Below are positions 4,230 to 48,863 of a stretch of DNA of 64,000 nt, piece by piece. Below the pieces are notes generated by a model. That model did not search any database. It saw nothing but the letters and a program-made list of their open reading frames with translations, and was not told the origin of the DNA. Within the stretch, counting starts at the first letter, position 1. Each line of letters opens with the position of its first letter. The stretch is from Candidatus Komeilibacteria bacterium RIFOXYD1_FULL_37_29. GTDB taxonomy: Bacteria; Patescibacteriota; Patescibacteriia; UBA1558; GWA2-36-10. The DNA is taken from assembly GCA_001818495.1 (NCBI GenBank), contig MHKS01000002.1, positions 16,120-80,119 of the forward strand, in the 5' to 3' direction. The translations under genes and the position numbers were made by a program.

Positions 4230-5395
4230 AATATCTTTTCTTTCATCTGTGTAGCAATATTGTCCCAGTTGTATTTTTCACAAACCATTTGGTGAGCTGA
4301 GTCAGTGATAGTTTTTACTTTGCTGGGATTTTTTAAAATATCTCGGACGGCTTCGGCTATTTGCTGGGGACTGTCTTTATCTACTACCCAGGCTGTCTTT
4401 TGATCAAAGATAAATTCACTTAGTCCACCCGATCTAGTAGCTATCACCGGTAGGTGAGAAGCCATGGCTGATAAAAAGGCATTACCTAGGCCTTCACTGC
4501 GACTAGGCCCGACAAAAATATCGGATATTTTTCTATACTTAGTGACTTCAGTCCTGTCGACGGCGCCGACAAAGATTACTCTTGATGTTAGACCCAACTC
4601 TTGGCTTAGTTTTTTTAGATTGTCTTCTTCCGGTCCGTCTCCGACTAGTAGAAACTTTATGTTTGGCTCCAATTTGGCCAGCGCCCTGATAACACTATCA
4701 TGACCCTTTTGAGCTACTAGGCGGGCAGTGTTAACCAAATAAATATCATTGGTTTGCTTATTTAATTTTATTTTTAATCTATTTAATTCTTCAGCCGGTG
4801 TGTCATTTTTAAAATCTTGAGGGTTAGCACCATTATAAATCAACACAATATTTTTTGGTTTAACACCACGCTTTTTGGCCCAATCAGCCAAGTAAGCAGA
4901 AATGGTCTGGACAACTGTTGCTTGACTAAAAGCTTTGGTAAATAGAGGCCAGAGCGGTCGCATGGTCTTTTCTATTTTGGCTATTGGATCGCCTTCCTGC
5001 AGAGTCAGGGCGTATTTTATCTGAGGGTAAAAAATATTAAAAATAGTTGTCGGCACACCAGTGGAGTGAGCCATCATGGACCACAATGCGTCATATTTAT
5101 ATTTTTTGTGCAGACGCCAGGCTTTTAGTGGTGTTAAAAGTTGGTAAAGTGGTTTGTTTAAATCCAGTGGTAATTTTCCCAGATCTTTAAAACTAGGATT
5201 TTGGGTGGTCAGGCCGATTCGATGAATCAAGATATTACCAATTTTTTCAGTTTTAGGTAGGTAACTATTGTATCTTAAAGTTACCATGTGAAATTCAATA
5301 TCATGAGTGCGATCAGTGATCTCTTTGATAGCCGCCTCGGCACCACTGACATTATGGGGGTAATAGCTTAGAGAAAAAATCAAAATCTTTTTCAT
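4211..5395 (-). CDS. Glycosyltransferase family 4 (Glycos_transf_1)
   Basis: 394 aa; EGLGNAFLSAMASHLPVIATRSGGLSEF typical GT4 C-terminal motif. Confidence 0.8.
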   Translation of the reverse strand: MKKILIFSLSYYPHNVSGAEAAIKEITDRTHDIEFHMVTLRYNSYLPKTEKIGNILIHRIGLTTQNPSFKDLGKLPLDLNKPLYQLLTPLKAWRLHKKYKYDALWSMMAHSTGVPTTIFNIFYPQIKYALTLQEGDPIAKIEKTMRPLWPLFTKAFSQATVVQTISAYLADWAKKRGVKPKNIVLIYNGANPQDFKNDTPAEELNRLKIKLNKQTNDIYLVNTARLVAQKGHDSVIRALAKLEPNIKFLLVGDGPEEDNLKKLSQELGLTSRVIFVGAVDRTEVTKYRKISDIFVGPSRSEGLGNAFLSAMASHLPVIATRSGGLSEFIFDQKTAWVVDKDSPQQIAEAVRDILKNPSKVKTITDSAHQMVCEKYNWDNIATQMKEKIFKKILN

Positions 5396-11056: not shown

Positions 11057-11132
11057 ATATATAATGTTTTTAATAGTTAAGGCTATTTTATTTTACCCTG
11101 CAAGGTAAGCTTAGTCAATAAATTTATTTAAA

Positions 11133-11166
11133 TAAAAATCCCGCCGCGTCTGACGCGGCGGGATGA
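11133..11166. terminator. Hairpin terminator (atcccgccgcg/cgcggcgggat)
   Basis: 11-bp GC stem seen directly. Confidence 0.6.
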
Positions 11167-19567: not shown

Positions 19568-19696
19568 TTATCTTTTCTTTCTGCGAGCAACTTTTCTCTT
19601 CTTAGAAGTTTTTTTAGCTACTCTCTTTTTAGCAACTTTTCTCTTCTTAGAAGTTTTTTTAGCTACTCTCTTTTTAGCAACTTTTTTCTTTTTCAC
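19568..19696 (-). CDS. Lys/Arg-rich 42-aa micro-protein (VKKKKVAKKRVAKKTSKKRKVAKKRVAKKTSKKRKVARRKKR), putative nucleic-acid-binding
   Basis: strong SD AGGAGGT 7 nt upstream of GTG; perfect 45-bp tandem duplication encodes a repeated 15-aa unit; the + strand ORF 19455-19721 is its antisense artefact. Confidence 0.45.
   Translation of the reverse strand: MKKKKVAKKRVAKKTSKKRKVAKKRVAKKTSKKRKVARRKKR
19591..19680. repeat. Perfect 45-bp direct tandem repeat x2 inside the K-rich micro-ORF
   Basis: cttttctcttcttagaagtttttttagctactctctttttagcaa repeated back-to-back (19591-19635, 19636-19680). Confidence 0.9.
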
Positions 19697-40819: not shown

Positions 40820-42175
40820 TTATTTTAATATTACGGGTTGATTATACTTTAGTATTTCTACTTCACGTTTCAAATCCTCTCCTATCATTATAGCAAATTT
40901 TTGCAAACTTGGCTTGTCCCCATGGCTTAGACAGATTTTTTTGGGATTTTCGAAGTGTTTTAGCCACCCCAGCAAAGACCCCTGGTCAGCGTGAGCGGAG
41001 AAGCCATCGATTTGTTGGGTGGTGGCGTGGATGGGTATTTTTTGGCCATAGTAGTCAAAATCAAAGTCACCACTTAGTATTTGATAGCCCAAGGTGCCAG
41101 GAACTTGAAAACCCATGAAAAGTATTTGATTTTTTTTATCAGATACATATTGAGCTAGGTGGTGGATTATCCGTCCGCCTTCCATCATACCCGAGCCAGC
41201 CATGATAATCTTGGGGTTGGGGGTTTTATTTATTTCTTTGGATTGACGAATGTTGTTGGTTATCTTTAGATGAGGGAAATCAAAAATATCTCGGTCTCTT
41301 TCTAGATCAGCTTGGGCGGTTTCATTTAAATCTAGTAAATGCTTTTTGTATATTTTGGTAGCTTGAGCCGCCATGGGGCTGTCCAAAAATACTGGCACCT
41401 TAAAATCTATGTGTGACTCATAATAATCATTGAGTACCCGTAGGATATCTTGAGTGCGCTCAATAGCAAAGATAGTGATTAAGAGAGTAGATTTATTTAG
41501 GGTGGTACGCAGCAGTGCTTTGATTAGTTCTTGATCACGGGTTTTTATAGCTTGATGGCTTCTATCGCCATAGGTTGATTCACAAACTACATAGTCGGCT
41601 TTATCAATAAAGTCAACATCTTTGACCAAGGGCATATTTTGTCCACCTAGATCACCGGAGAAAACAATAGTTTTTGACCCAGCTTGTATTTTGATAATGG
41701 CCGAGCCCAAAATATGTCCGGCATTGTAGAGAGTAAAGCTGATGTCGGGGGTTAGCTGACGACTTTGATAATAGCTTATAGGTGTGAAACTCTTATTGGT
41801 TTTTAGGAGGTCGTTTTGACGGTAGAATCTGGGTATTTTTTTACGGAAGGATTTTTCTTCCATAATAAAGTAGCTGTCTTCCAAAACTATTTTAGCCAAA
41901 TCAATAGTGGCCGGGGTGGCAAAAATCGGTCCATTGTAGCCTTCGGCGTAGAGCTTGGGCAGACGGCCGCAGTGATCCAAGTGGGCGTGGGTTAAAATAA
42001 CCGCGTCCAAACTTTTCGGATCAAATAAAAATTTGTCCCAGTTTTTTACATAGTTTTCCCAGTCGCCTTGCCACAGGCCACAGTCAATCAGTATTCGGTG
42101 GCCATCAATATTTAAGAGATGACATGATCCGGTGACTTCTTCGGTGGCTCCATAGGATGTTAATTTTATTTCCAT
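40820..42175 (-). CDS. MBL-fold metallo-hydrolase of the beta-CASP RNA-metabolising family (RNase J/CPSF-like)
   Basis: 451 aa; HAHLDHCG motif and beta-CASP layout. Confidence 0.7.
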   Translation of the reverse strand: MEIKLTSYGATEEVTGSCHLLNIDGHRILIDCGLWQGDWENYVKNWDKFLFDPKSLDAVILTHAHLDHCGRLPKLYAEGYNGPIFATPATIDLAKIVLEDSYFIMEEKSFRKKIPRFYRQNDLLKTNKSFTPISYYQSRQLTPDISFTLYNAGHILGSAIIKIQAGSKTIVFSGDLGGQNMPLVKDVDFIDKADYVVCESTYGDRSHQAIKTRDQELIKALLRTTLNKSTLLITIFAIERTQDILRVLNDYYESHIDFKVPVFLDSPMAAQATKIYKKHLLDLNETAQADLERDRDIFDFPHLKITNNIRQSKEINKTPNPKIIMAGSGMMEGGRIIHHLAQYVSDKKNQILFMGFQVPGTLGYQILSGDFDFDYYGQKIPIHATTQQIDGFSAHADQGSLLGWLKHFENPKKICLSHGDKPSLQKFAIMIGEDLKREVEILKYNQPVILK

Positions 42176-42205: not shown

Positions 42206-43051
42206 CTATGCACATAAAGTTTTGAGCAATTTGTTTAGATACTTGAAGTCGCCATCGTCAGTTATTATTATATCAAAGTTTTTTAAAAAAGTATTTTTTA
42301 TTTTTGGCTCAGAGTAGTTTAAGAATCCCACTTTTATCAGCTGATCATAAGCAAAGCCAGTGATCATAGCGACATCGCTGATATTATCTCCTAGCAAAAT
42401 AACATTTTTTCTCTGAGAAATTTGCCGATAAATTTTAGGGAAATTTTTAAGCACTGTTTCGTCTTTGTTTAAAGAGTGAATGATTGGTTCTTTGATGGCC
42501 AAGGCCTGACCAGATTTTGACCACTTCAGAGAATTGACAATATAGTGAATGTTTTTATAATTTTTTTTGGCGTTTTTAAAATACAGTGGTACCGCTTCGC
42601 CGACACCGCTGGCTGATAAAATCACTAGGGGAATTTTTTTGGTTTTTAGATAATCTAAAAATTCCGGTGCTCCTTGGCGAAATTTTATCTGCGGGTCTTT
42701 AACTATTTTTAGTAGGTCATATTTACTCAGACCAGATTTTATTAATAGTTTTTTATGAGTGCGCCACCAGGTGTTCATAGCTTTTTTCTTTTTAGACAAA
42801 GCCAGGTTCGGATCTTTTTCTATTGGTTGGTATTTATCAAATAAAGCATGCGCTTTTTTAGCATAGTCAGCGCTGAGATAATGGCCGTTTCTTAAAATAG
42901 CGATTAAAGATGGTGTGGGGACATTATTGATGGCACGATAAGTCATGGTGCGGTCAAAATCAGCCAAGACATGTAGTTTAGCTGGACCGTCTTGTCGGAT
43001 GGCTTTTATAGTAGCCGCTAATTTTTTTGCTTTAGGTATGATGATGCTCAT
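42206..43051 (-). CDS. HAD-superfamily hydrolase, pyrimidine 5'-nucleotidase (UMPH-1)-like
   Basis: 281 aa; motif I LADFDRTMT, ILSASG, GDNISDVAM. Confidence 0.45.
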   Translation of the reverse strand: MSIIIPKAKKLAATIKAIRQDGPAKLHVLADFDRTMTYRAINNVPTPSLIAILRNGHYLSADYAKKAHALFDKYQPIEKDPNLALSKKKKAMNTWWRTHKKLLIKSGLSKYDLLKIVKDPQIKFRQGAPEFLDYLKTKKIPLVILSASGVGEAVPLYFKNAKKNYKNIHYIVNSLKWSKSGQALAIKEPIIHSLNKDETVLKNFPKIYRQISQRKNVILLGDNISDVAMITGFAYDQLIKVGFLNYSEPKIKNTFLKNFDIIITDDGDFKYLNKLLKTLCA

Positions 43052-43123
43052 GATTAGTGTTTGATAATATGAGCATTATAGCATAAAAAGGCTCTTTTCT
43101 AAAAAATTGAGAAGGGCTATTCT

Positions 43124-43152
43124 TTGACAAAATTAAAAAAGTATGTTATAGT
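43124..43152 (+). promoter_or_regulatory. Sigma-70-type promoter TTGACA-17-TATAGT
   Basis: seen directly upstream of 43212 CDS. Confidence 0.5.
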
Positions 43153-43211
43153 ATGATTTAATTATCTGTTCTTGAAATCAATCACCACTTTATAGAGAAA
43201 GGGATTCTTTT

Positions 43212-43610
43212 ATGAAAACCAGCTCTTACGTACTGAGCATCCTAGTGGTGGCAGCTTTAATCGCCGGTTTCTATTTCAAGTATTCGTATTCGTACGGAAA
43301 CTTGCACGGTGAACAGCTGTCCATCTTCTGGGGAGCGACAGCTTATGTCGCGGTGGTGGCTATCGGAGTAGGCCGCTCCTTTGTTTGGGGGCTTCTTGTT
43401 GGAGTCATGACAGGTGTTGTTGCCTGGCGTGTTTTCTCGGCACTTATGCCTGAGTACCAAACACAAATGCTCCTAGCCTGCGGCTTGGTCTATTCGCTAC
43501 TGTTTTTGATCAGTAGTGCGGTTCATGAGAACCACAAGGAAAAGACCTCCACTACTATAGCTGATCAGAGCTACAGGATCCAAGCAGGCGCCAAAGCACT
43601 TCTTGGCTAA
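43212..43610 (+). CDS. Hypothetical membrane protein
   Basis: 132 aa, 3-4 TM; GC-rich (~50%). Confidence 0.4.
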   Translation: MKTSSYVLSILVVAALIAGFYFKYSYSYGNLHGEQLSIFWGATAYVAVVAIGVGRSFVWGLLVGVMTGVVAWRVFSALMPEYQTQMLLACGLVYSLLFLISSAVHENHKEKTSTTIADQSYRIQAGAKALLG

Positions 43611-43623
43611 TTGTACCCACCAA

Positions 43624-43737
43624 ATTTTTGGCCGCGACACGTCACACGTGTCGCGGTTTCTCGTTTTGACAAAAATAATTTCTCCAGATATTATTTAAAT
43701 AGATAAAGTTCTATTCAAATTTTTTGGAGAAGCTATG
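43624..43737 (+). repeat. 114-bp cassette copy A: hairpin terminator (ccgcgacacgt-cac-acgtgtcgcgg) + TTGACA-17-ATATTA promoter + GGAGAAG RBS + ATG
   Basis: identical to 44452-44565; the ATG here opens only a 5-codon leader (MIAKE*) whose stop overlaps the aaggag SD of the 43758 gene. Confidence 0.85.
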
Positions 43738-43757
43738 ATAGCAAAGGAGTAGTAATT

Positions 43758-44444
43758 ATGAATATAACACAAGTAATGCCACGATGTGTTTTTATCCCTA
43801 GGACAGTACTCTCGATAGCCTTGAAGCTACTTCAGCTGGTGATACTGAAGTTGGCAAAATGGAATGTAGATCCCAATTATATTACAATAATTGGGCTTAT
43901 AACAAACCTATTGGCGTCATACTTCGCATATGTACAACAGTTTTTAATTTCGGGTTTGTTATTAGCATTCGGAGGATTATGTGATTACATAGATGGTGGA
44001 GTGGCACGAGCAACACTACGTAATTCATCAAGAGGCGCTGCCCTTGATTCTATCGCTGACAGATTGTCGGAGATGGTATTTCTAACAGCTTTGGGGTTCT
44101 TTTTTGAACAATATGGTTCAAGAATACTCGCAATTTTATCCTTTGTTGCATTGATCGGTAGTATACTGACTAGCTACGCACGAGCTATTTCTAGAGCGGA
44201 AAGCATGGGTGTATTTAGTTGTTTATTCTATCGGCAGGACAGAGTGATAATCCTAGTTGTGGGATTGCTATTAACATCGGTAAATAGTTTATTGTTTAAT
44301 AGCAATTCTCAATCTCAAGGGGACATTGGCCAATTATTTGCGATTGCTTATTGGCCTTTGTCAATATCAGTTATAGTTCTGGCTATTTTTACGTGTATTT
44401 CTGCTGGTCAGAGAATTTTATCAATTTGGAAGAGCGACTCCTAA
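43758..44444 (+). CDS. CDP-alcohol phosphatidyltransferase family protein (PgsA/PssA-like)
   Basis: 228 aa; DYIDGGVARATLRNSSRGAALDSIADRLSE = D-G-x2-A-R-x8-G-x3-D-x3-D signature; polytopic. Confidence 0.75.
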   Translation: MNITQVMPRCVFIPRTVLSIALKLLQLVILKLAKWNVDPNYITIIGLITNLLASYFAYVQQFLISGLLLAFGGLCDYIDGGVARATLRNSSRGAALDSIADRLSEMVFLTALGFFFEQYGSRILAILSFVALIGSILTSYARAISRAESMGVFSCLFYRQDRVIILVVGLLLTSVNSLLFNSNSQSQGDIGQLFAIAYWPLSISVIVLAIFTCISAGQRILSIWKSDS

Positions 44445-44451
44445 TGTCCTT

Positions 44452-44565
44452 ATTTTTGGCCGCGACACGTCACACGTGTCGCGGTTTCTCGTTTTGACAA
44501 AAATAATTTCTCCAGATATTATTTAAATAGATAAAGTTCTATTCAAATTTTTTGGAGAAGCTATG
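44452..44565 (+). repeat. 114-bp cassette copy B (terminator-promoter-RBS-ATG)
   Basis: 100% identical to copy A; here the ATG starts a 28-aa hydrophobic peptide ORF. Confidence 0.85.
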
Positions 44566-44649
44566 TTTAAGACAATGTTTTATACCAAGTGTGTTCTGAC
44601 CGCTTTAGGTTGGATCTTGTTCATCATTGCGATGATCGCCAGCAAATAA
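44563..44649 (+). CDS. 28-aa hydrophobic micro-peptide (MFKTMFYTKCVLTALGWILFIIAMIASK)
   Basis: driven by duplicated promoter/RBS cassette; single TM; bidirectional terminator 44679-44706 follows. Confidence 0.35.
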   Translation: MFKTMFYTKCVLTALGWILFIIAMIASK

Positions 44650-44727
44650 TGGACCCTCTCCATCAAAAATCCTCGCCAAAAAACTCGGACTAGTTCCGAG
44701 TTTTTCGCTTTCAAAGTTTTTTAGTAA

Positions 44728-45351
44728 TTATATTTTTCCGACTAGATTCAAACCAGGTTTTAGAGTGTCTTGGCCGGGTTGCCAATTGGCTGGACAAACC
44801 TGATCGCCATATTTAGCAACAAATTGTGCGGCTTGCAGTTTACGCATCAGCTCATCACCACTTCGGCCGATACCGTCACCATGTATTTCAATGGTTTTTA
44901 TTTTTCCTTCCGGAGAAATAATATAAGTACCGCGTAAAGCAATGCCTTGATTGGCTATTAGCACGCCGTATTTTCTACAAATTTCATGGGAGGCGTCAGC
45001 TAGCATAGGAAATTTTATTTTTTTAATCGTATCACTAGCTTCATACCAAGATTTGTGCACCTCTACTGTATCGGTAGAAACTGATAATACTTCGGTATTG
45101 AGATTTTTGATAGTTTGATAACGATTGGCTACATCACCGAGCTCGGTTGGGCAGACAAAAGTAAAATCTTTGGGGTAAAAGATCAAAATTACCCATTTGC
45201 CTCGATAATCTTTTAGGCTAATTTTTTTGGCACTATCTTCATGATAGGCCTCAGCTGTAAAATCGGGAGCTAGAGAGTCTATCGGCGGGGTCAGGTTGTC
45301 AAAATATTCTTCTTGGCAGCACTGGCCACCACAACAGTTTTCTTTTTCCAT
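44728..45351 (-). CDS. Peroxiredoxin (typical 2-Cys, AhpC/Prx1 family) with Cys-rich N-terminal extension
   Basis: 207 aa; FYPKDFTFVCPTE peroxidatic Cys motif; N-terminal CCGGQCC. Confidence 0.9.
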   Translation of the reverse strand: MEKENCCGGQCCQEEYFDNLTPPIDSLAPDFTAEAYHEDSAKKISLKDYRGKWVILIFYPKDFTFVCPTELGDVANRYQTIKNLNTEVLSVSTDTVEVHKSWYEASDTIKKIKFPMLADASHEICRKYGVLIANQGIALRGTYIISPEGKIKTIEIHGDGIGRSGDELMRKLQAAQFVAKYGDQVCPANWQPGQDTLKPGLNLVGKI

Positions 45352-45370
45352 ATTTGATTTAGGTTATTTA

Positions 45371-46261
45371 TTAAATAATAAAGCCGATTTTTTTGAGGAG
45401 CTGTTCTCCTTTGTAAATACCGTGCTCATAAGACTGATGGATGCGGTCTAGATTTTTTTCAGTTTTGGAAATATATATTTCATCATAGACTACGTGAACA
45501 TTTTTATAGCCCCTTAAGGTCTCTATATAAGGGTAGCTAAACAGGCTAAAAAAATGTTTAATGCCATAGGCCAACCCTAAATAACGGGTTTTAAATAAAA
45601 GGTCTAGCAGGTCCCAAAGGATATATTTTAAAACTCGTGGGACGGTTTTTTTGTCGTTGAAAATATAAAATATTTGTTTGTCCGGGTGTTTGCTAATGAC
45701 ATTTTTTATAAAATCGCGGGTGGGCATAATACCGCCGTCATAGTAAAGTTCATTTTTTATTTTGGTATAAGCATAAGGCGGTATTTTGGCCGATTGAACC
45801 AAACGATTAATGGTGTCTATTTTAGCGTCGAGATATTCCAAACCCAAAGTATCAGGATTAAAGACCCGGACATAGAAGTTGACGGGTGATTGTTTGATGC
45901 TTTTGACATCTAGTTTGGTTTCGCCCATGGTTTCTATTTCCCGAGCATAATCTAGGTCAATAATGTCAAAGGATTTTTTGTAAAGTAGTAGTTGCCAAAA
46001 TTTATGCCAAATTATTTTTGGTGATAAGTCTGTTAGGAAACGATGTTTTTTGCATAATTTATCATGATAGATTTGAGCAGCCAATTCGGTTTGATGAGCC
46101 AAAAAATAAGCTGAGCTGTGAGCGCCAGAAGACACAGCGTAAATAGAGTGTACGCGATCATAAATATTGTGTCTTTCAAAGGCTGTTAAAACACCGGTGC
46201 TAAATATTCCCTGGATGGTACCGCCTTTGACAATGATGATAATATCTCGCTCTGTTTCCAT
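45371..46261 (-). CDS. Patatin-like phospholipase family protein
   Basis: 296 aa; GGTIQG oxyanion region, AVSSGA (GxSxG-like) and YDGGI (DGG) motif. Confidence 0.5.
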   Translation of the reverse strand: METERDIIIIVKGGTIQGIFSTGVLTAFERHNIYDRVHSIYAVSSGAHSSAYFLAHQTELAAQIYHDKLCKKHRFLTDLSPKIIWHKFWQLLLYKKSFDIIDLDYAREIETMGETKLDVKSIKQSPVNFYVRVFNPDTLGLEYLDAKIDTINRLVQSAKIPPYAYTKIKNELYYDGGIMPTRDFIKNVISKHPDKQIFYIFNDKKTVPRVLKYILWDLLDLLFKTRYLGLAYGIKHFFSLFSYPYIETLRGYKNVHVVYDEIYISKTEKNLDRIHQSYEHGIYKGEQLLKKIGFII

Positions 46262-46278
46262 GATTTTTGACTAGTAGT

Positions 46279-46893
46279 TTATTTATTGGCCTGATATTTT
46301 TCGGCTACCTTTAGCCAGTTTATCACATTAAAGAAGTTTTCGACAAATTCGGCGCGGCGATTTTGGTATTTTAAATAATAGGAGTGTTCCCAGACATCAA
46401 TGCCTAAGATTGGTTGATGACCCAAAGAATAAGGACTATCTTGATTGCTAGTTTTTTCTATGATTAGTTTTCCATCAACCAAAGATAGCCAAGCCCAGCC
46501 AGCACCAAAAACAGTCATAGCGGCAGTGGTAAACTCCTCTTTAAATTTTTCAAAAGAGTTGAAGCTGCTAATAATGGCTTTAAGTAGCTCTCCTTGTGGT
46601 TTACCGCCTTGGCCGGCTGGAGCCATAATTTCCCAGAAAAAATTGTGATGGACATGACCCCCGCCGTGATTTTTGACAGCGGTACGTATTTCTTCGGGCA
46701 CAGAGTTTAGCTGACTGAGTATTTCTTCAGCCGATTTTTCAGCTAGTTTTGGATAATTTTCTAAGGCTTTATTAAAATTGGTAGTGTAGGCGACATGGTG
46801 TTTATCATGATGAATTTTCATAGTCGCTTCGTCTATATATGGTTCTAAAGCATTGTAAGCATATGGTAAATCTGGTGTTTGAAATTGTGACAT
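46279..46893 (-). CDS. sodA: Fe/Mn superoxide dismutase
   Basis: 204 aa; LPYAYNALEPYID...HHDKHH, DVWEHSYY. Confidence 0.9.
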   Translation of the reverse strand: MSQFQTPDLPYAYNALEPYIDEATMKIHHDKHHVAYTTNFNKALENYPKLAEKSAEEILSQLNSVPEEIRTAVKNHGGGHVHHNFFWEIMAPAGQGGKPQGELLKAIISSFNSFEKFKEEFTTAAMTVFGAGWAWLSLVDGKLIIEKTSNQDSPYSLGHQPILGIDVWEHSYYLKYQNRRAEFVENFFNVINWLKVAEKYQANK

Positions 46894-46923
46894 ATATTTT
46901 ATTGGTTAGTTTATTAAATAATT

Positions 46924-47595
46924 TTAGCCGAAGTATTTTTCCGTATAGAATCTGATTAGTTGTTCTACTTCGGGAATAACTTCGGGATTACCTACACCCA
47001 CTTTGGTTTTTTTCTGGACGGCTTCCAGAGTCTGAGCTCCTTCGAGGACGGCTTCTTCAATATCGTGATCGGTGACATTGGCCGCTTTGTCTATGATACG
47101 GACCTGCTCTTTGACCACGCGATCTTTTTGATGAGATTTTATAAAATAATTGTTAATGGCCGAGCGCAAGGCCTTATCACCCAAGACAGAGCAGTGTATT
47201 TTTCTGGTTGGTAGATCGCCGAGACGTTTGGTGATATCTTGTGGCTTGATGCTAAGCGCTTGGGCTATTTTCATGCCGCCATTTTCAGTGACCATCACAG
47301 ATAGCATAGAGGTAGCCGCTATGGCGCTACCGCAACCAAAGGTTTGCCACTTCATTTCTTGGAGGCGGTCGTCTTTTTTATCTACTTTTATCCAGATTTT
47401 CATCATATCACCGCAGGCTGGGGAGCCGACCATACCTAAGCCGTCGTAGCCTTTCATAGCCGAAGCATCCATGACCAGATTTTTGGGGTGGAAAAAATGT
47501 TCTTTGACTATATCAGTGTAGACCCAGACGTCATTGGTGCCTTTGGGCACCACATCCACAGCGCTGGCCGCACTGATTTTCTTTTTAGTAGTCAT
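46924..47595 (-). CDS. Fe-S cluster assembly scaffold NifU/IscU-like
   Basis: 223 aa; GSPACGDMMK, TFGCGSAIA, KIHCSVLG three-Cys scaffold motifs. Confidence 0.8.
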   Translation of the reverse strand: MTTKKKISAASAVDVVPKGTNDVWVYTDIVKEHFFHPKNLVMDASAMKGYDGLGMVGSPACGDMMKIWIKVDKKDDRLQEMKWQTFGCGSAIAATSMLSVMVTENGGMKIAQALSIKPQDITKRLGDLPTRKIHCSVLGDKALRSAINNYFIKSHQKDRVVKEQVRIIDKAANVTDHDIEEAVLEGAQTLEAVQKKTKVGVGNPEVIPEVEQLIRFYTEKYFG

Positions 47596-47621
47596 ATATA
47601 TAAATGTCTTTTAATTATTAT

Positions 47622-48863
47622 TTAAAGTTCAATGATTTGCCGAGGTGCATTTTTTATCGCTTTGGCTACTTCATCCATATCAACGCGCACTGGACTGGCG
47701 TGTCGTAAGTGATCCACTATTTTTGGTAAATGTTTGATAACATAGTCTATGTCATCTTCGGTGGTAGCTTTACCCAAAGTAAAACGCATGGATCCATGAG
47801 CCACTTCATAAGGGCAGCCCAGGGCTCTGATGACATGCGACGGATCAAGGGTCGTAGAGGTGCAAGCTGAGCCGGTAGAAGCCTGGATACCTATTTCATC
47901 AAGATAAAGTAACATGGCTTCGCCTTCAATATCTAGGATAGAAATATTGACATTATTGGGCAGTCTTTGGCTGGGGTGGCCATTTAATCTAGTTTTGGGA
48001 ATTATAGCCAAAATTTCTTTGATTAATTTATCTCGCAATTTTATCAGTCGGGCATTTTCTTTGGTCTGCGACTGGTGCGCTAGTTCCAAGGCAGTGGCTA
48101 AGCCGACTATGCCCGGGACGTTTTCTGTACCAGAGCGAATATTTTTTTCCTGACCGCCACCGTCAATAATTGGTCCCAGGTTGGTGCCAGTTTTCATATA
48201 CAAAGCGCCGACGCCTTTAGGGCCGTAGACCTTAGAGCCATTGATAGTCAAAAGATCAACGTGTAGTTTTTTGACGTTTAAATCTAATGTTCCACCAGCT
48301 TGGCAGGCATCAGTGTGGAAGTAAATTATTGGTAATCCTTTGGCTATTCTTTCGCGGTTTATTTTTTCTATCAAAGCGCCGATTTTTTGAATATCTTGAA
48401 TCACGCCAATTTCATTATTGGCTATCATGATAGAAATTAGCTTGGTGTTGTCTTTAATAGCTTTTTCAATATCTTCTAATCTGATAAAACCTTGGTCATC
48501 GACCGGTAAAATAGAGACACTGTGGCCGAGTTTTTTCAAAGTATCAGCGGTATGTAAAACAGCGTGGTGCTCTATGGAGGAGGTAATAAAGTGAGCGCCG
48601 GGATTTTTTTGTAAAACACCTTTTAAAGCTAGATTAATACTTTCGGTTCCGCCACCAGTAAAGATTAGCTCATCGGCTTGGCAGTCTAGTAACTGACTGA
48701 TTTTTACGCGAGCCAAGGTAATAGCATTTTTGCTTTGTAGTCCCAATTGGTAAAGACTGGAAGGGTTGCCATAATATTTGGTCCAATATGGCTCCATAGC
48801 TTTGACTACCCGCGGGTCAGTCGGGGTAGTAGAAGCGTGATCTAGATATATATTTTTTTTCAT
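47622..48863 (-). CDS. Cysteine desulfurase (NifS/IscS, class V aminotransferase)
   Basis: 413 aa; PLP-Lys SGHKVYGPKGVGALY and active-site SSGSACTS. Confidence 0.9.
   Translation of the reverse strand: MKKNIYLDHASTTPTDPRVVKAMEPYWTKYYGNPSSLYQLGLQSKNAITLARVKISQLLDCQADELIFTGGGTESINLALKGVLQKNPGAHFITSSIEHHAVLHTADTLKKLGHSVSILPVDDQGFIRLEDIEKAIKDNTKLISIMIANNEIGVIQDIQKIGALIEKINRERIAKGLPIIYFHTDACQAGGTLDLNVKKLHVDLLTINGSKVYGPKGVGALYMKTGTNLGPIIDGGGQEKNIRSGTENVPGIVGLATALELAHQSQTKENARLIKLRDKLIKEILAIIPKTRLNGHPSQRLPNNVNISILDIEGEAMLLYLDEIGIQASTGSACTSTTLDPSHVIRALGCPYEVAHGSMRFTLGKATTEDDIDYVIKHLPKIVDHLRHASPVRVDMDEVAKAIKNAPRQIIEL

Follow-up and report, generated by a model that had tools for sequence, protein, structure and literature searches.

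The window analysed here is a 64,000-nt stretch of contig MHKS01000002.1 of Candidatus Komeilibacteria bacterium RIFOXYD1_FULL_37_29, a groundwater member of the Candidate Phyla Radiation (CPR, Patescibacteria). The locus described is formed around a gene for a CDP-alcohol phosphatidyltransferase (P) that is flanked on both sides by a 114-nt unit (R) in direct orientation. The first copy of R (copy A) separates P from the gene of a small membrane protein (U), and the second (copy B) joins P to an open reading frame (ORF) of 28 codons, referred to below as the sORF. A convergent AhpC/peroxiredoxin gene closes the locus. The individual features, in window coordinates, are as follows.

43212..43610, + strand: U, a 132-aa membrane protein with four hydrophobic segments; left flank of the insertion site
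43624..43737, + strand: R copy A, with a hairpin at 43630-43658 and a T-tract, 3' of U
43666-43671, 43689-43694, 43726-43729 and 43735-43737, + strand: −35, −10, GGAG and ATG of copy A
43735..43752, + strand: mini-ORF ATG ATA GCA AAG GAG TAG (MIAKE, stop); its ATG is supplied by the repeat, its other codons by the inserted DNA
43738..44451, + strand: non-repeat part of the insertion, 714 bp, made up of a 20-nt 5' leader that includes a Shine-Dalgarno sequence for P, the P ORF and 7 nt past its stop codon
43758..44444, + strand: P, CDP-alcohol phosphatidyltransferase of 228 aa, scoring 47.4 bits on PF01066 (cut-off 22)
44452..44565, + strand: R copy B, with a hairpin at 44458-44486 and a T-tract, now 3' of P
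44494-44499, 44517-44522, 44554-44557 and 44563-44565, + strand: −35, −10, GGAG and ATG of copy B
44563..44649, + strand: sORF, gene of a 28-aa small protein with a single transmembrane segment (MFKTMFYTKCVLTALGWILFIIAMIASK); ancestral, with orthologous alleles of the same length
44679..44705, no strand: predicted bidirectional terminator hairpin (A-run, stem, T-run) common to the sORF and the convergent AhpC gene
44728..45351, − strand: AhpC/peroxiredoxin gene; right flank of the locus and anchor for finding relatives

The two copies of R, located with a repeat finder, are each 114 nt long and 100% identical, with a start-to-start spacing of 828 nt; the exact duplication reported in an earlier note on this DNA is therefore borne out with 0 differences. 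A 42-nt core of the unit gives two matches in the window at up to three mismatches and none in 100 shuffles, and no third copy was found within the 64 kb by whole-window repeat finding or blastn-short. Copy A begins 13 nt past a stop codon and copy B 7 nt past one, and in both the last three bases are the ATG. The 11-bp hairpin recognized earlier extends to a stem of 13 pairs, 11 of them perfect and the two outer ones G.U, closed by a 3-nt loop. It has a free energy of -24 to -26 kcal/mol (z -3.6 and -6.0 for the two copies) and TTTCTCGTTTT follows directly on its 3' side. Rho-independent terminators are defined by a GC-rich stem-loop that, at a gene's 3' end, runs directly into a T-rich tract, and this activity is predicted for R; an Rfam scan of 42500-45500 returned sub-threshold noise only. 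Each copy then carries TTGACA-17-TATTAT, which matches the promoter consensus at 11 of 12 positions (the −10 had been given as ATATTA, one base out of register), and a Shine-Dalgarno GGAG five nt 5' of the ATG. The proposal that each copy is a composite of terminator, promoter, ribosome binding site and start codon holds; related species retain each of these elements.

No copy of R was found outside this locus, either in the loci fetched for comparison (designated L), in GTDB representatives, in JGI contigs or in IMG/VR. The hairpin pattern CCGCGACACGTNNNACGTGTCGCGG gave 0 matches in the GTDB species representatives, among which this species is evidently not included, and 0 matches in IMG/VR. 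In JGI metagenome contigs it gave one match, which is the same locus (L013); the subset searched omits the known contigs L001, L002 and L008. The copy count suggested in the earlier note was accordingly run on the window and these collections and gave copies at this locus only. The ends of the unit (ATTTTTGG... and ...GAAGCTATG) are not inverted repeats of each other, the sole inverted repeat being the internal hairpin. The suggested check for target-site duplications at R was likewise run and, as with terminal inverted repeats, none was found. A site-specific recombination site of the dif or attC type was considered for the hairpin and rejected, as the duplication runs 80 nt beyond the hairpin to the ATG and there is no recombinase gene nearby.

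Exact-protein look-ups yielded many further, independently assembled contigs of this population, and relatives of the locus were reached through the relatives of U and with AhpC as an anchor. The closest of them, L025, has 10 mismatches in 4561 nt against window positions 43181-48569 (99.8% identical) and is without exactly 828 bp, equivalent to P and one R, which leaves the order U, R, sORF, AhpC. The single R of L025 is identical to that of the window. Two of the contigs with relatives of U, L015 and L016 (U proteins 74-81% identical), continue beyond that gene. In both, a single R follows U and leads into the 28-aa ORF, after which come a terminator and convergent AhpC, with no P in between. 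Their R retains the stem-loop and T-tract and again carries the TTGACA promoter, GGAGAAG and the ATG. The more distant L027 and L028 (AhpC 81-82% identical) keep the order of a UMPH-1-type nucleotidase gene, a small membrane gene and AhpC, again without P, and the outgroup L027 has no R at all. Identical repeats therefore flank the insert, and the allele lacking it has one R and unchanged flanks, as expected of an insertion with direct duplication.

Between species R is 86-89% identical, with the hairpin, −35, −10, GGAG and ATG all retained. This degree of identity, despite a synonymous divergence (dS) of 0.8-0.95 in the adjacent U gene, points to constraint on R. The comparison of these loci indicates that the 28-aa gene has R as its native control region and that P is the variable element. 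The presence or absence of P appears to vary within the species, for which the single-copy allele comes from one low-coverage SPAdes contig (L025, coverage 2.2).

The sORF had been regarded as a gene created by the duplication. This is refuted by its ancestral position behind one R unit in L015, L016 and L025, where its length is unchanged; L034 contains the sORF together with its immediate upstream region. What the event did create is the five-codon ORF and a promoter for the inserted P. The conservation check proposed for the small gene yielded four orthologous alleles, all of 28 codons: that of the window (MFKTMFYTKCVLTALGWILFIIAMIASK), L034 (MFKTIFYTKCVLTALGWLLVIILMVTHN), L016 (MFKTIFYTKCALTALGFIVVIILMIAFR) and L015 (MLKTIFYIRCVGTVIGLIFIIILMITNR). 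In pairwise comparison their nonsynonymous divergence (dN) is 0.17-0.36 and dS at least 0.6, giving dN/dS ratios of about 0.2-0.4; in five of the six comparisons the largest share of the differences falls on third codon positions. These values support the view that the sORF is a real, conserved gene older than the duplication. It is absent from all gene tables; 28 codons are under the minimum gene length of common gene callers, which would explain why it is not listed. No family match was found for the 28-aa protein, or for U, in Pfam and NCBIfam. In L028 a 30-aa ORF with a single transmembrane segment (MSNIRKYCLMPIGITLMFIAWSIIASIQAR) occurs at 4712-4801, on the minus strand of that locus, with GGAGG on its 5' side, a promoter-like TTGACA and its own terminator. 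It is placed upstream, and not downstream, of the U-like membrane gene and, with weak similarity, may be a distant homologue of the sORF.

The 714-bp segment has neither a promoter nor a terminator of its own. The protein encoded by P carries at residues 76-101 (DYIDGGVARATLRNSSRGAALDSIAD) the complete D-x2-DG-x2-AR-x8-G-x3-D-x3-D signature, so that the catalytic signature is intact, and a crude Kyte-Doolittle scan gives six hydrophobic segments, where the family is expected to have about six transmembrane helices. Both features are common to P, the phosphatidylinositol-phosphate and archaetidylinositol-phosphate synthases and PgsA. P differs from all of these in scoring below every equivalog cut-off: 114.8 bits against 180 for the archaetidylinositol-phosphate synthase model NF040950, which is the best-scoring subfamily, 84.7 against 170 for the phosphatidylinositol-phosphate synthase model NF045883, and 34.6 against 109.1 for the PgsA model TIGR00560. 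The description of the gene as pgsA-like is therefore imprecise, the inositol-phosphate-type models scoring higher. The best solved relatives are the IPCT/DIPPS structure 4mnd and the phosphatidylinositol-phosphate synthases 5d91 and 6wm5 (PDB).

P is no more than about 35-40% identical to anything known, among 15 billion proteins. Its best match in a word-indexed search of 5.8 billion proteins is 39% identical, and in an exhaustive HMMER search of 1.84 billion cluster representatives P itself was alone at E<1e-30, the next proteins being about 35% identical over the full length. Of the nearest relatives one is named by organism, Candidatus Kryptonium, and the others are metagenome proteins; no donor or close homologue was found in either search, and the protein gave no match to viral contigs. 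Homologues at 34% identity lie in operons with an inositol-1-phosphate synthase and a GT4 glycosyltransferase. Neither an inositol-1-phosphate synthase nor a second copy of P was detected by tblastn within the window. The composition of P is host-like (GC 38.3%, and 33% at third codon positions, against 38.2% GC for the window). P represents an orphan lineage of PF01066 whose nearest kin are the inositol-phosphate-type synthases. Limited lipid biosynthesis is generally attributed to CPR bacteria.

At the junction of copy A with the inserted DNA the ATG of the repeat reads into the mini-ORF. This exists as had been described, with the difference that its stop does not overlap the Shine-Dalgarno of P: the AAGGAG (43744-43749) is formed by codons 4-5, lies 8 nt 5' of the P ATG at 43758 and is followed by the stop, which is 5 nt from that ATG. 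The single-copy alleles have no such mini-ORF, and in them this ATG opens the 28-aa ORF. Because the repeat ATG simply reads into the inserted 5' leader, the mini-ORF is regarded as a by-product of the junction. An 11-nt perfect palindrome, GCTAT-G-ATAGC, spans the same junction at 43732-43742; it may be a coincidence or a trace of the joining mechanism.

Taken together, these comparisons make it probable that R is a native control region, that the 714-bp segment with P was inserted recently with R duplicated in the same event, and that its presence now varies in the species. Before the event R would have served as the intrinsic terminator of U and as the near-consensus sigma-70 promoter, Shine-Dalgarno and start codon of the sORF. 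Entry of a promoterless 714-bp segment, carrying P with its own Shine-Dalgarno, and doubling of R would then give the order U-R-P-R-sORF. In this arrangement copy A would terminate U as before and its promoter would now transcribe the mini-ORF and P. Copy B would terminate the P transcript and preserve expression of the sORF, which would end at the hairpin shared with AhpC. With two identical copies of R, P and the sORF would therefore be under identical promoters. P is probably translated from its own Shine-Dalgarno or by termination-reinitiation after the mini-ORF. The activities assigned here to terminators, promoters and Shine-Dalgarno sequences are read from the DNA sequence.

The first duplication could have arisen through two illegitimate joins between sister chromosomes, staggered in position, or, alternatively, by a replication template switch that copied R twice. 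Either of these is more likely than Campbell-type entry of an R-carrying circle. As such entry needs a circle that already carries an identical R, it would explain spread within the species rather than the first origin. Selection might then have kept an outcome that gave the newcomer a promoter and left the resident gene intact. Once formed, the 114-bp direct repeats would allow RecA-type recombination to delete P precisely with release of an R-P circle. This circle could re-enter at a resident R, or P could spread through flanking homology.

The zero differences between the copies of R compare with about 11-16 per 114 nt between species. Unless gene conversion has acted, this would place the duplication, by our own estimate, within roughly the last quarter of the between-species divergence. 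The claim of a recent duplication is thus upheld, with 0/114 differences against 11-14% between related species and a single-copy allele in a 99.8%-identical strain. The event appears to be a recent and reversible gene gain or loss, with P apparently differing in occurrence between strains.

Several points weigh against an insertion of P with duplication of R. It is conceivable that the assembler skipped the R-P loop in L025, yet the SPAdes contig L009, with similarly low coverage, resolves it. Recombination between the two copies of R would leave precisely such P-free alleles, and the gene could thus have been lost from L025 or from the relatives; as direct repeats allow precise RecA-mediated loss, a loss in L025 is conceivable beside a gain here. 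The composition of P is that of its host and no donor is identifiable, its foreign origin being deduced from its absence in relatives.

The possibility that the repeat itself is an error of assembly, from collapsed or duplicated reads, is hardly credible. Many assemblies are indeed broken at or inside R (L001, L002, L003, L010, L011, L032 and L035), as is expected of a two-copy repeat. The check for such an error was made at contig level, and the whole layout from U through both copies of R to the downstream region was reproduced in at least four independent assemblies (L005, L006, L008 and L009) from different samples and different assemblers. Contigs built with k=141 or k=127, which is longer than the 114 nt of R, cross the U-R-P junction (L003, L012) and the P-R-downstream junction (L004, L031). 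P lies at the same locus in all the P-carrying contigs recovered, and proteins of the locus are found in the metagenome-assembled genomes (MAGs) RIFOXYD1_FULL_37_29 and RIFOXYC1_FULL_37_11. It would be another matter if the absence of P from L025 were the artefact, with P fixed in the species and the between-species comparison alone holding, which we think improbable. This contig comes from sample ERZ5996431. At its k-mer coverage of 2.2, pieces of P broken by gaps could have been clipped as tips, leaving U-R-sORF. Its remaining 4.5 kb are however gap-free and carry single nucleotide polymorphisms of their own, L009 traverses R-P-R correctly at a coverage of 2.7, and among the P-carrying contigs displayed none is from this sample. 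About as improbable, if anything a shade less so, is an old arrangement U-R-P-R-sORF in which gene conversion homogenized the copies of R and P was lost repeatedly, in L025, L015, L016 and the outgroups. Deletion between the repeats would give the observed single-copy alleles, the composition of P matches that of its host, and the gene tree of U is star-like and unrooted, which makes parsimony among the closest relatives weak. Against this, at least three or four independent losses would be needed, including that in the outgroup L027 without any R, together with perfect homogenization of 114 nt, and no orthologue of P occurs in any other sequenced organism searched.

The remaining explanations concern the nature of R and of the duplicate. 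R was suggested to be a mobile promoter and terminator element similar to a miniature inverted-repeat transposable element (MITE), or a member of a dispersed repeat, inserted on both sides of P. It is certainly a compact, self-contained expression module, and the window contains two occurrences of another GC-rich hairpin (11125-11165 and 50534-50574). The relatives however have a single R at the orthologous position, continuous with its flanks, and the lack of a third copy in the window, of any copy beyond this locus in the searched collections, and of terminal inverted repeats or a target-site duplication makes a MITE-like or portable promoter family extremely unlikely. Scarcely more probable is that the duplicate and the five-codon ORF form a selected regulatory device, either for leader-peptide control or for obligatory stoichiometric co-expression of enzyme and peptide. 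The promoters are identical, and the mini-ORF overlaps the Shine-Dalgarno of P and stops just before its ATG. Yet 5 nt from stop to ATG leave no room for an attenuator, the fold of 43695-43790 is no better than that of shuffles (z = +0.36), and the sequence of the mini-ORF is a foreign 5' leader read from the ATG of R; the leader-peptide arrangement envisaged in the earlier note, or an attenuation device, is unsupported. Co-regulation of P and the peptide, also envisaged there, follows trivially from their common promoter sequence. A functional partnership of the two is not indicated, because the sORF occurs without P in all relatives and in L025 of the same species. The insertion of P beside a native, duplicated R is the preferred account of the locus.

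Two further features lie on the 5' side of U.

42206-43051, − strand: UMPH-1-type pyrimidine 5'-nucleotidase gene
43124..43152, + strand: promoter-like site of U, TTGACA-17-TATAGT with a TG extension; an equivalent site is conserved in L017

U has three relatives only, at 73-81% identity, among the 5.8 billion proteins. Its GC content of 49.6% (55% at third codon positions) stands against 38.2% for the window, and its orthologues in L015 and L016 have 51-52% GC. The small membrane gene in the position of U in L027, which is non-homologous to U, has 49% GC in a locus of 34%; the small membrane proteins of L027 and L028 showed no detectable homology to U (E >= 0.07). The 14-nt motif ATTGTACNCACYAM, which stands between the stop of U and the repeat (43610-43623), has one copy in the window, two in L016 (555-580) and three in L015 (762-806), which makes it a small variable-number tandem repeat of the 3' untranslated region of U. 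On the other side of the locus, the hairpin at 44679-44705 has a free energy of -17.1 kcal/mol (z -3.5), and L015 has a different complementary stem at this place. The UMPH-1 protein has a single confirmed relative in GTDB representative genomes, from a Candidatus Woesearchaeota archaeon (49% identity), which hints that the gene may be shared between CPR bacteria and DPANN archaea. As a synteny anchor it recovered that Woesearchaeota contig alone and was of no use.

Contigs of the population are mosaic, in that variants against the window occur in short dense tracts within otherwise identical DNA. Such tracts are seen at 41741-41834, 42932-43133, 44546-44767 and 45214-45292 (in L009/L020, L008, L034 and L025); L034 has 36 variants in 44546-44767 and is then identical up to 47053. 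The pattern suggests frequent homologous recombination with diverged relatives. In L006 and L019 one scaffold, equivalent to 43038-43232, contains about 195 nt of the UMPH-1/U promoter region twice, one copy being diverged, which probably represents two strain alleles joined in scaffolding. Elsewhere in the window, the GC-rich palindromic hairpin ATCCCGCCGCG-loop-CGCGGCGGGAT is near-identical at the two intergenic positions 39 kb apart noted above and resembles a second repeated hairpin of the terminator type. At 19586-19675 a stretch of 45 nt is exactly duplicated in tandem, which would be an in-frame 15-codon repeat if coding.

Direct repeats that flank an insert, with one copy in the empty site, are also produced as target-site duplications of transposons and as the attL/attR sites of integrative elements. 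Transposase-made duplications are typically 2-15 bp, unlike the 114 bp of R-P-R, which has no transposase, integrase or terminal inverted repeats; in the Pfam annotation no transposase or integrase is found within about 10 kb of the locus. R furthermore spans a complete functional control region, unlike the recombinase core site of att repeats. In Campbell-type integration of circular DNA by a single crossover, as with integrating suicide plasmids, the insert becomes flanked by a direct duplication of the homology and the process is reversible. The product and its reversibility are the same as for R-P-R, but the incoming circle must already carry R, and unlike a vector of this type the locus has no vector, integrase or replication genes.

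A closer likeness is found in the PeSL cassettes of T4-type phages, which are composite units of roughly 100 bp made up of the stop region of the preceding gene, a stem-loop terminator, a strong sigma-70 promoter, a Shine-Dalgarno sequence and a start codon (PMC2839356). PeSLs flank ORFs without known relatives, with two cassettes in one phage and one in the sister phage, and recombination between them is predicted to excise the ORF precisely as a mini-circle with possible re-insertion (PMC2839356). Such mini-circles have been demonstrated (Arbiol et al. 2010, PMC2839356; Comeau et al. 2014, PMC4122927). R is similarly a composite unit of about 100 bp that extends from a terminator to a start codon, and an accessory ORF lies here between two units where the 99.8%-identical L025 has one. 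The two systems differ in that PeSLs form families with about 50 copies in a phage genome, which are similar without being identical and cluster in hyperplastic regions (PMC2839356; PMC4122927), whereas R has two identical copies in 64 kb and none elsewhere in the searched collections. R also stands in a bacterial chromosome among housekeeping neighbours, without matches to viral contigs and with proteins that NCBI names as those of Candidatus Komeilibacteria MAGs, and it corresponds by orthology to the ordinary control region of a conserved gene of the host. Finally, the mini-circles of PeSLs are experimentally known and R-P circles are a prediction from sequence topology. The PeSL cassette is the closest known counterpart of R-P-R, which is not itself a member of the PeSL family.

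The locus thus illustrates how, in nature, a small genome poor in mobile elements may gain a gene and express it at once through a duplicated resident control region, the newcomer P obtaining a promoter and a terminator and the resident sORF keeping its own. The event has apparently been caught while the presence of P still varies in one species, and the 114-bp repeats would make it precisely reversible. Both the conserved 28-aa membrane-protein gene, missed by standard gene callers, and the orphan CDP-alcohol phosphatidyltransferase lineage in a CPR bacterium are worth annotating. It is a speculative and rather doubtful extension that the terminator, promoter and ribosome binding site units of CPR bacteria could be general substrates of homologous recombination, into which promoterless accessory genes are plugged, expressed and popped out again. 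If this were true, R-P-R would be the first case in which a cassette mechanism of this kind has been caught in a cellular genome very poor in mobile elements, and genes might be swapped through R-gene mini-circles or transformation, as with the PeSLs of T4-type phages. Current understanding is not overturned by these findings, the value of which lies in a well-documented case and in its possible parallel to the PeSL cassettes of phages.

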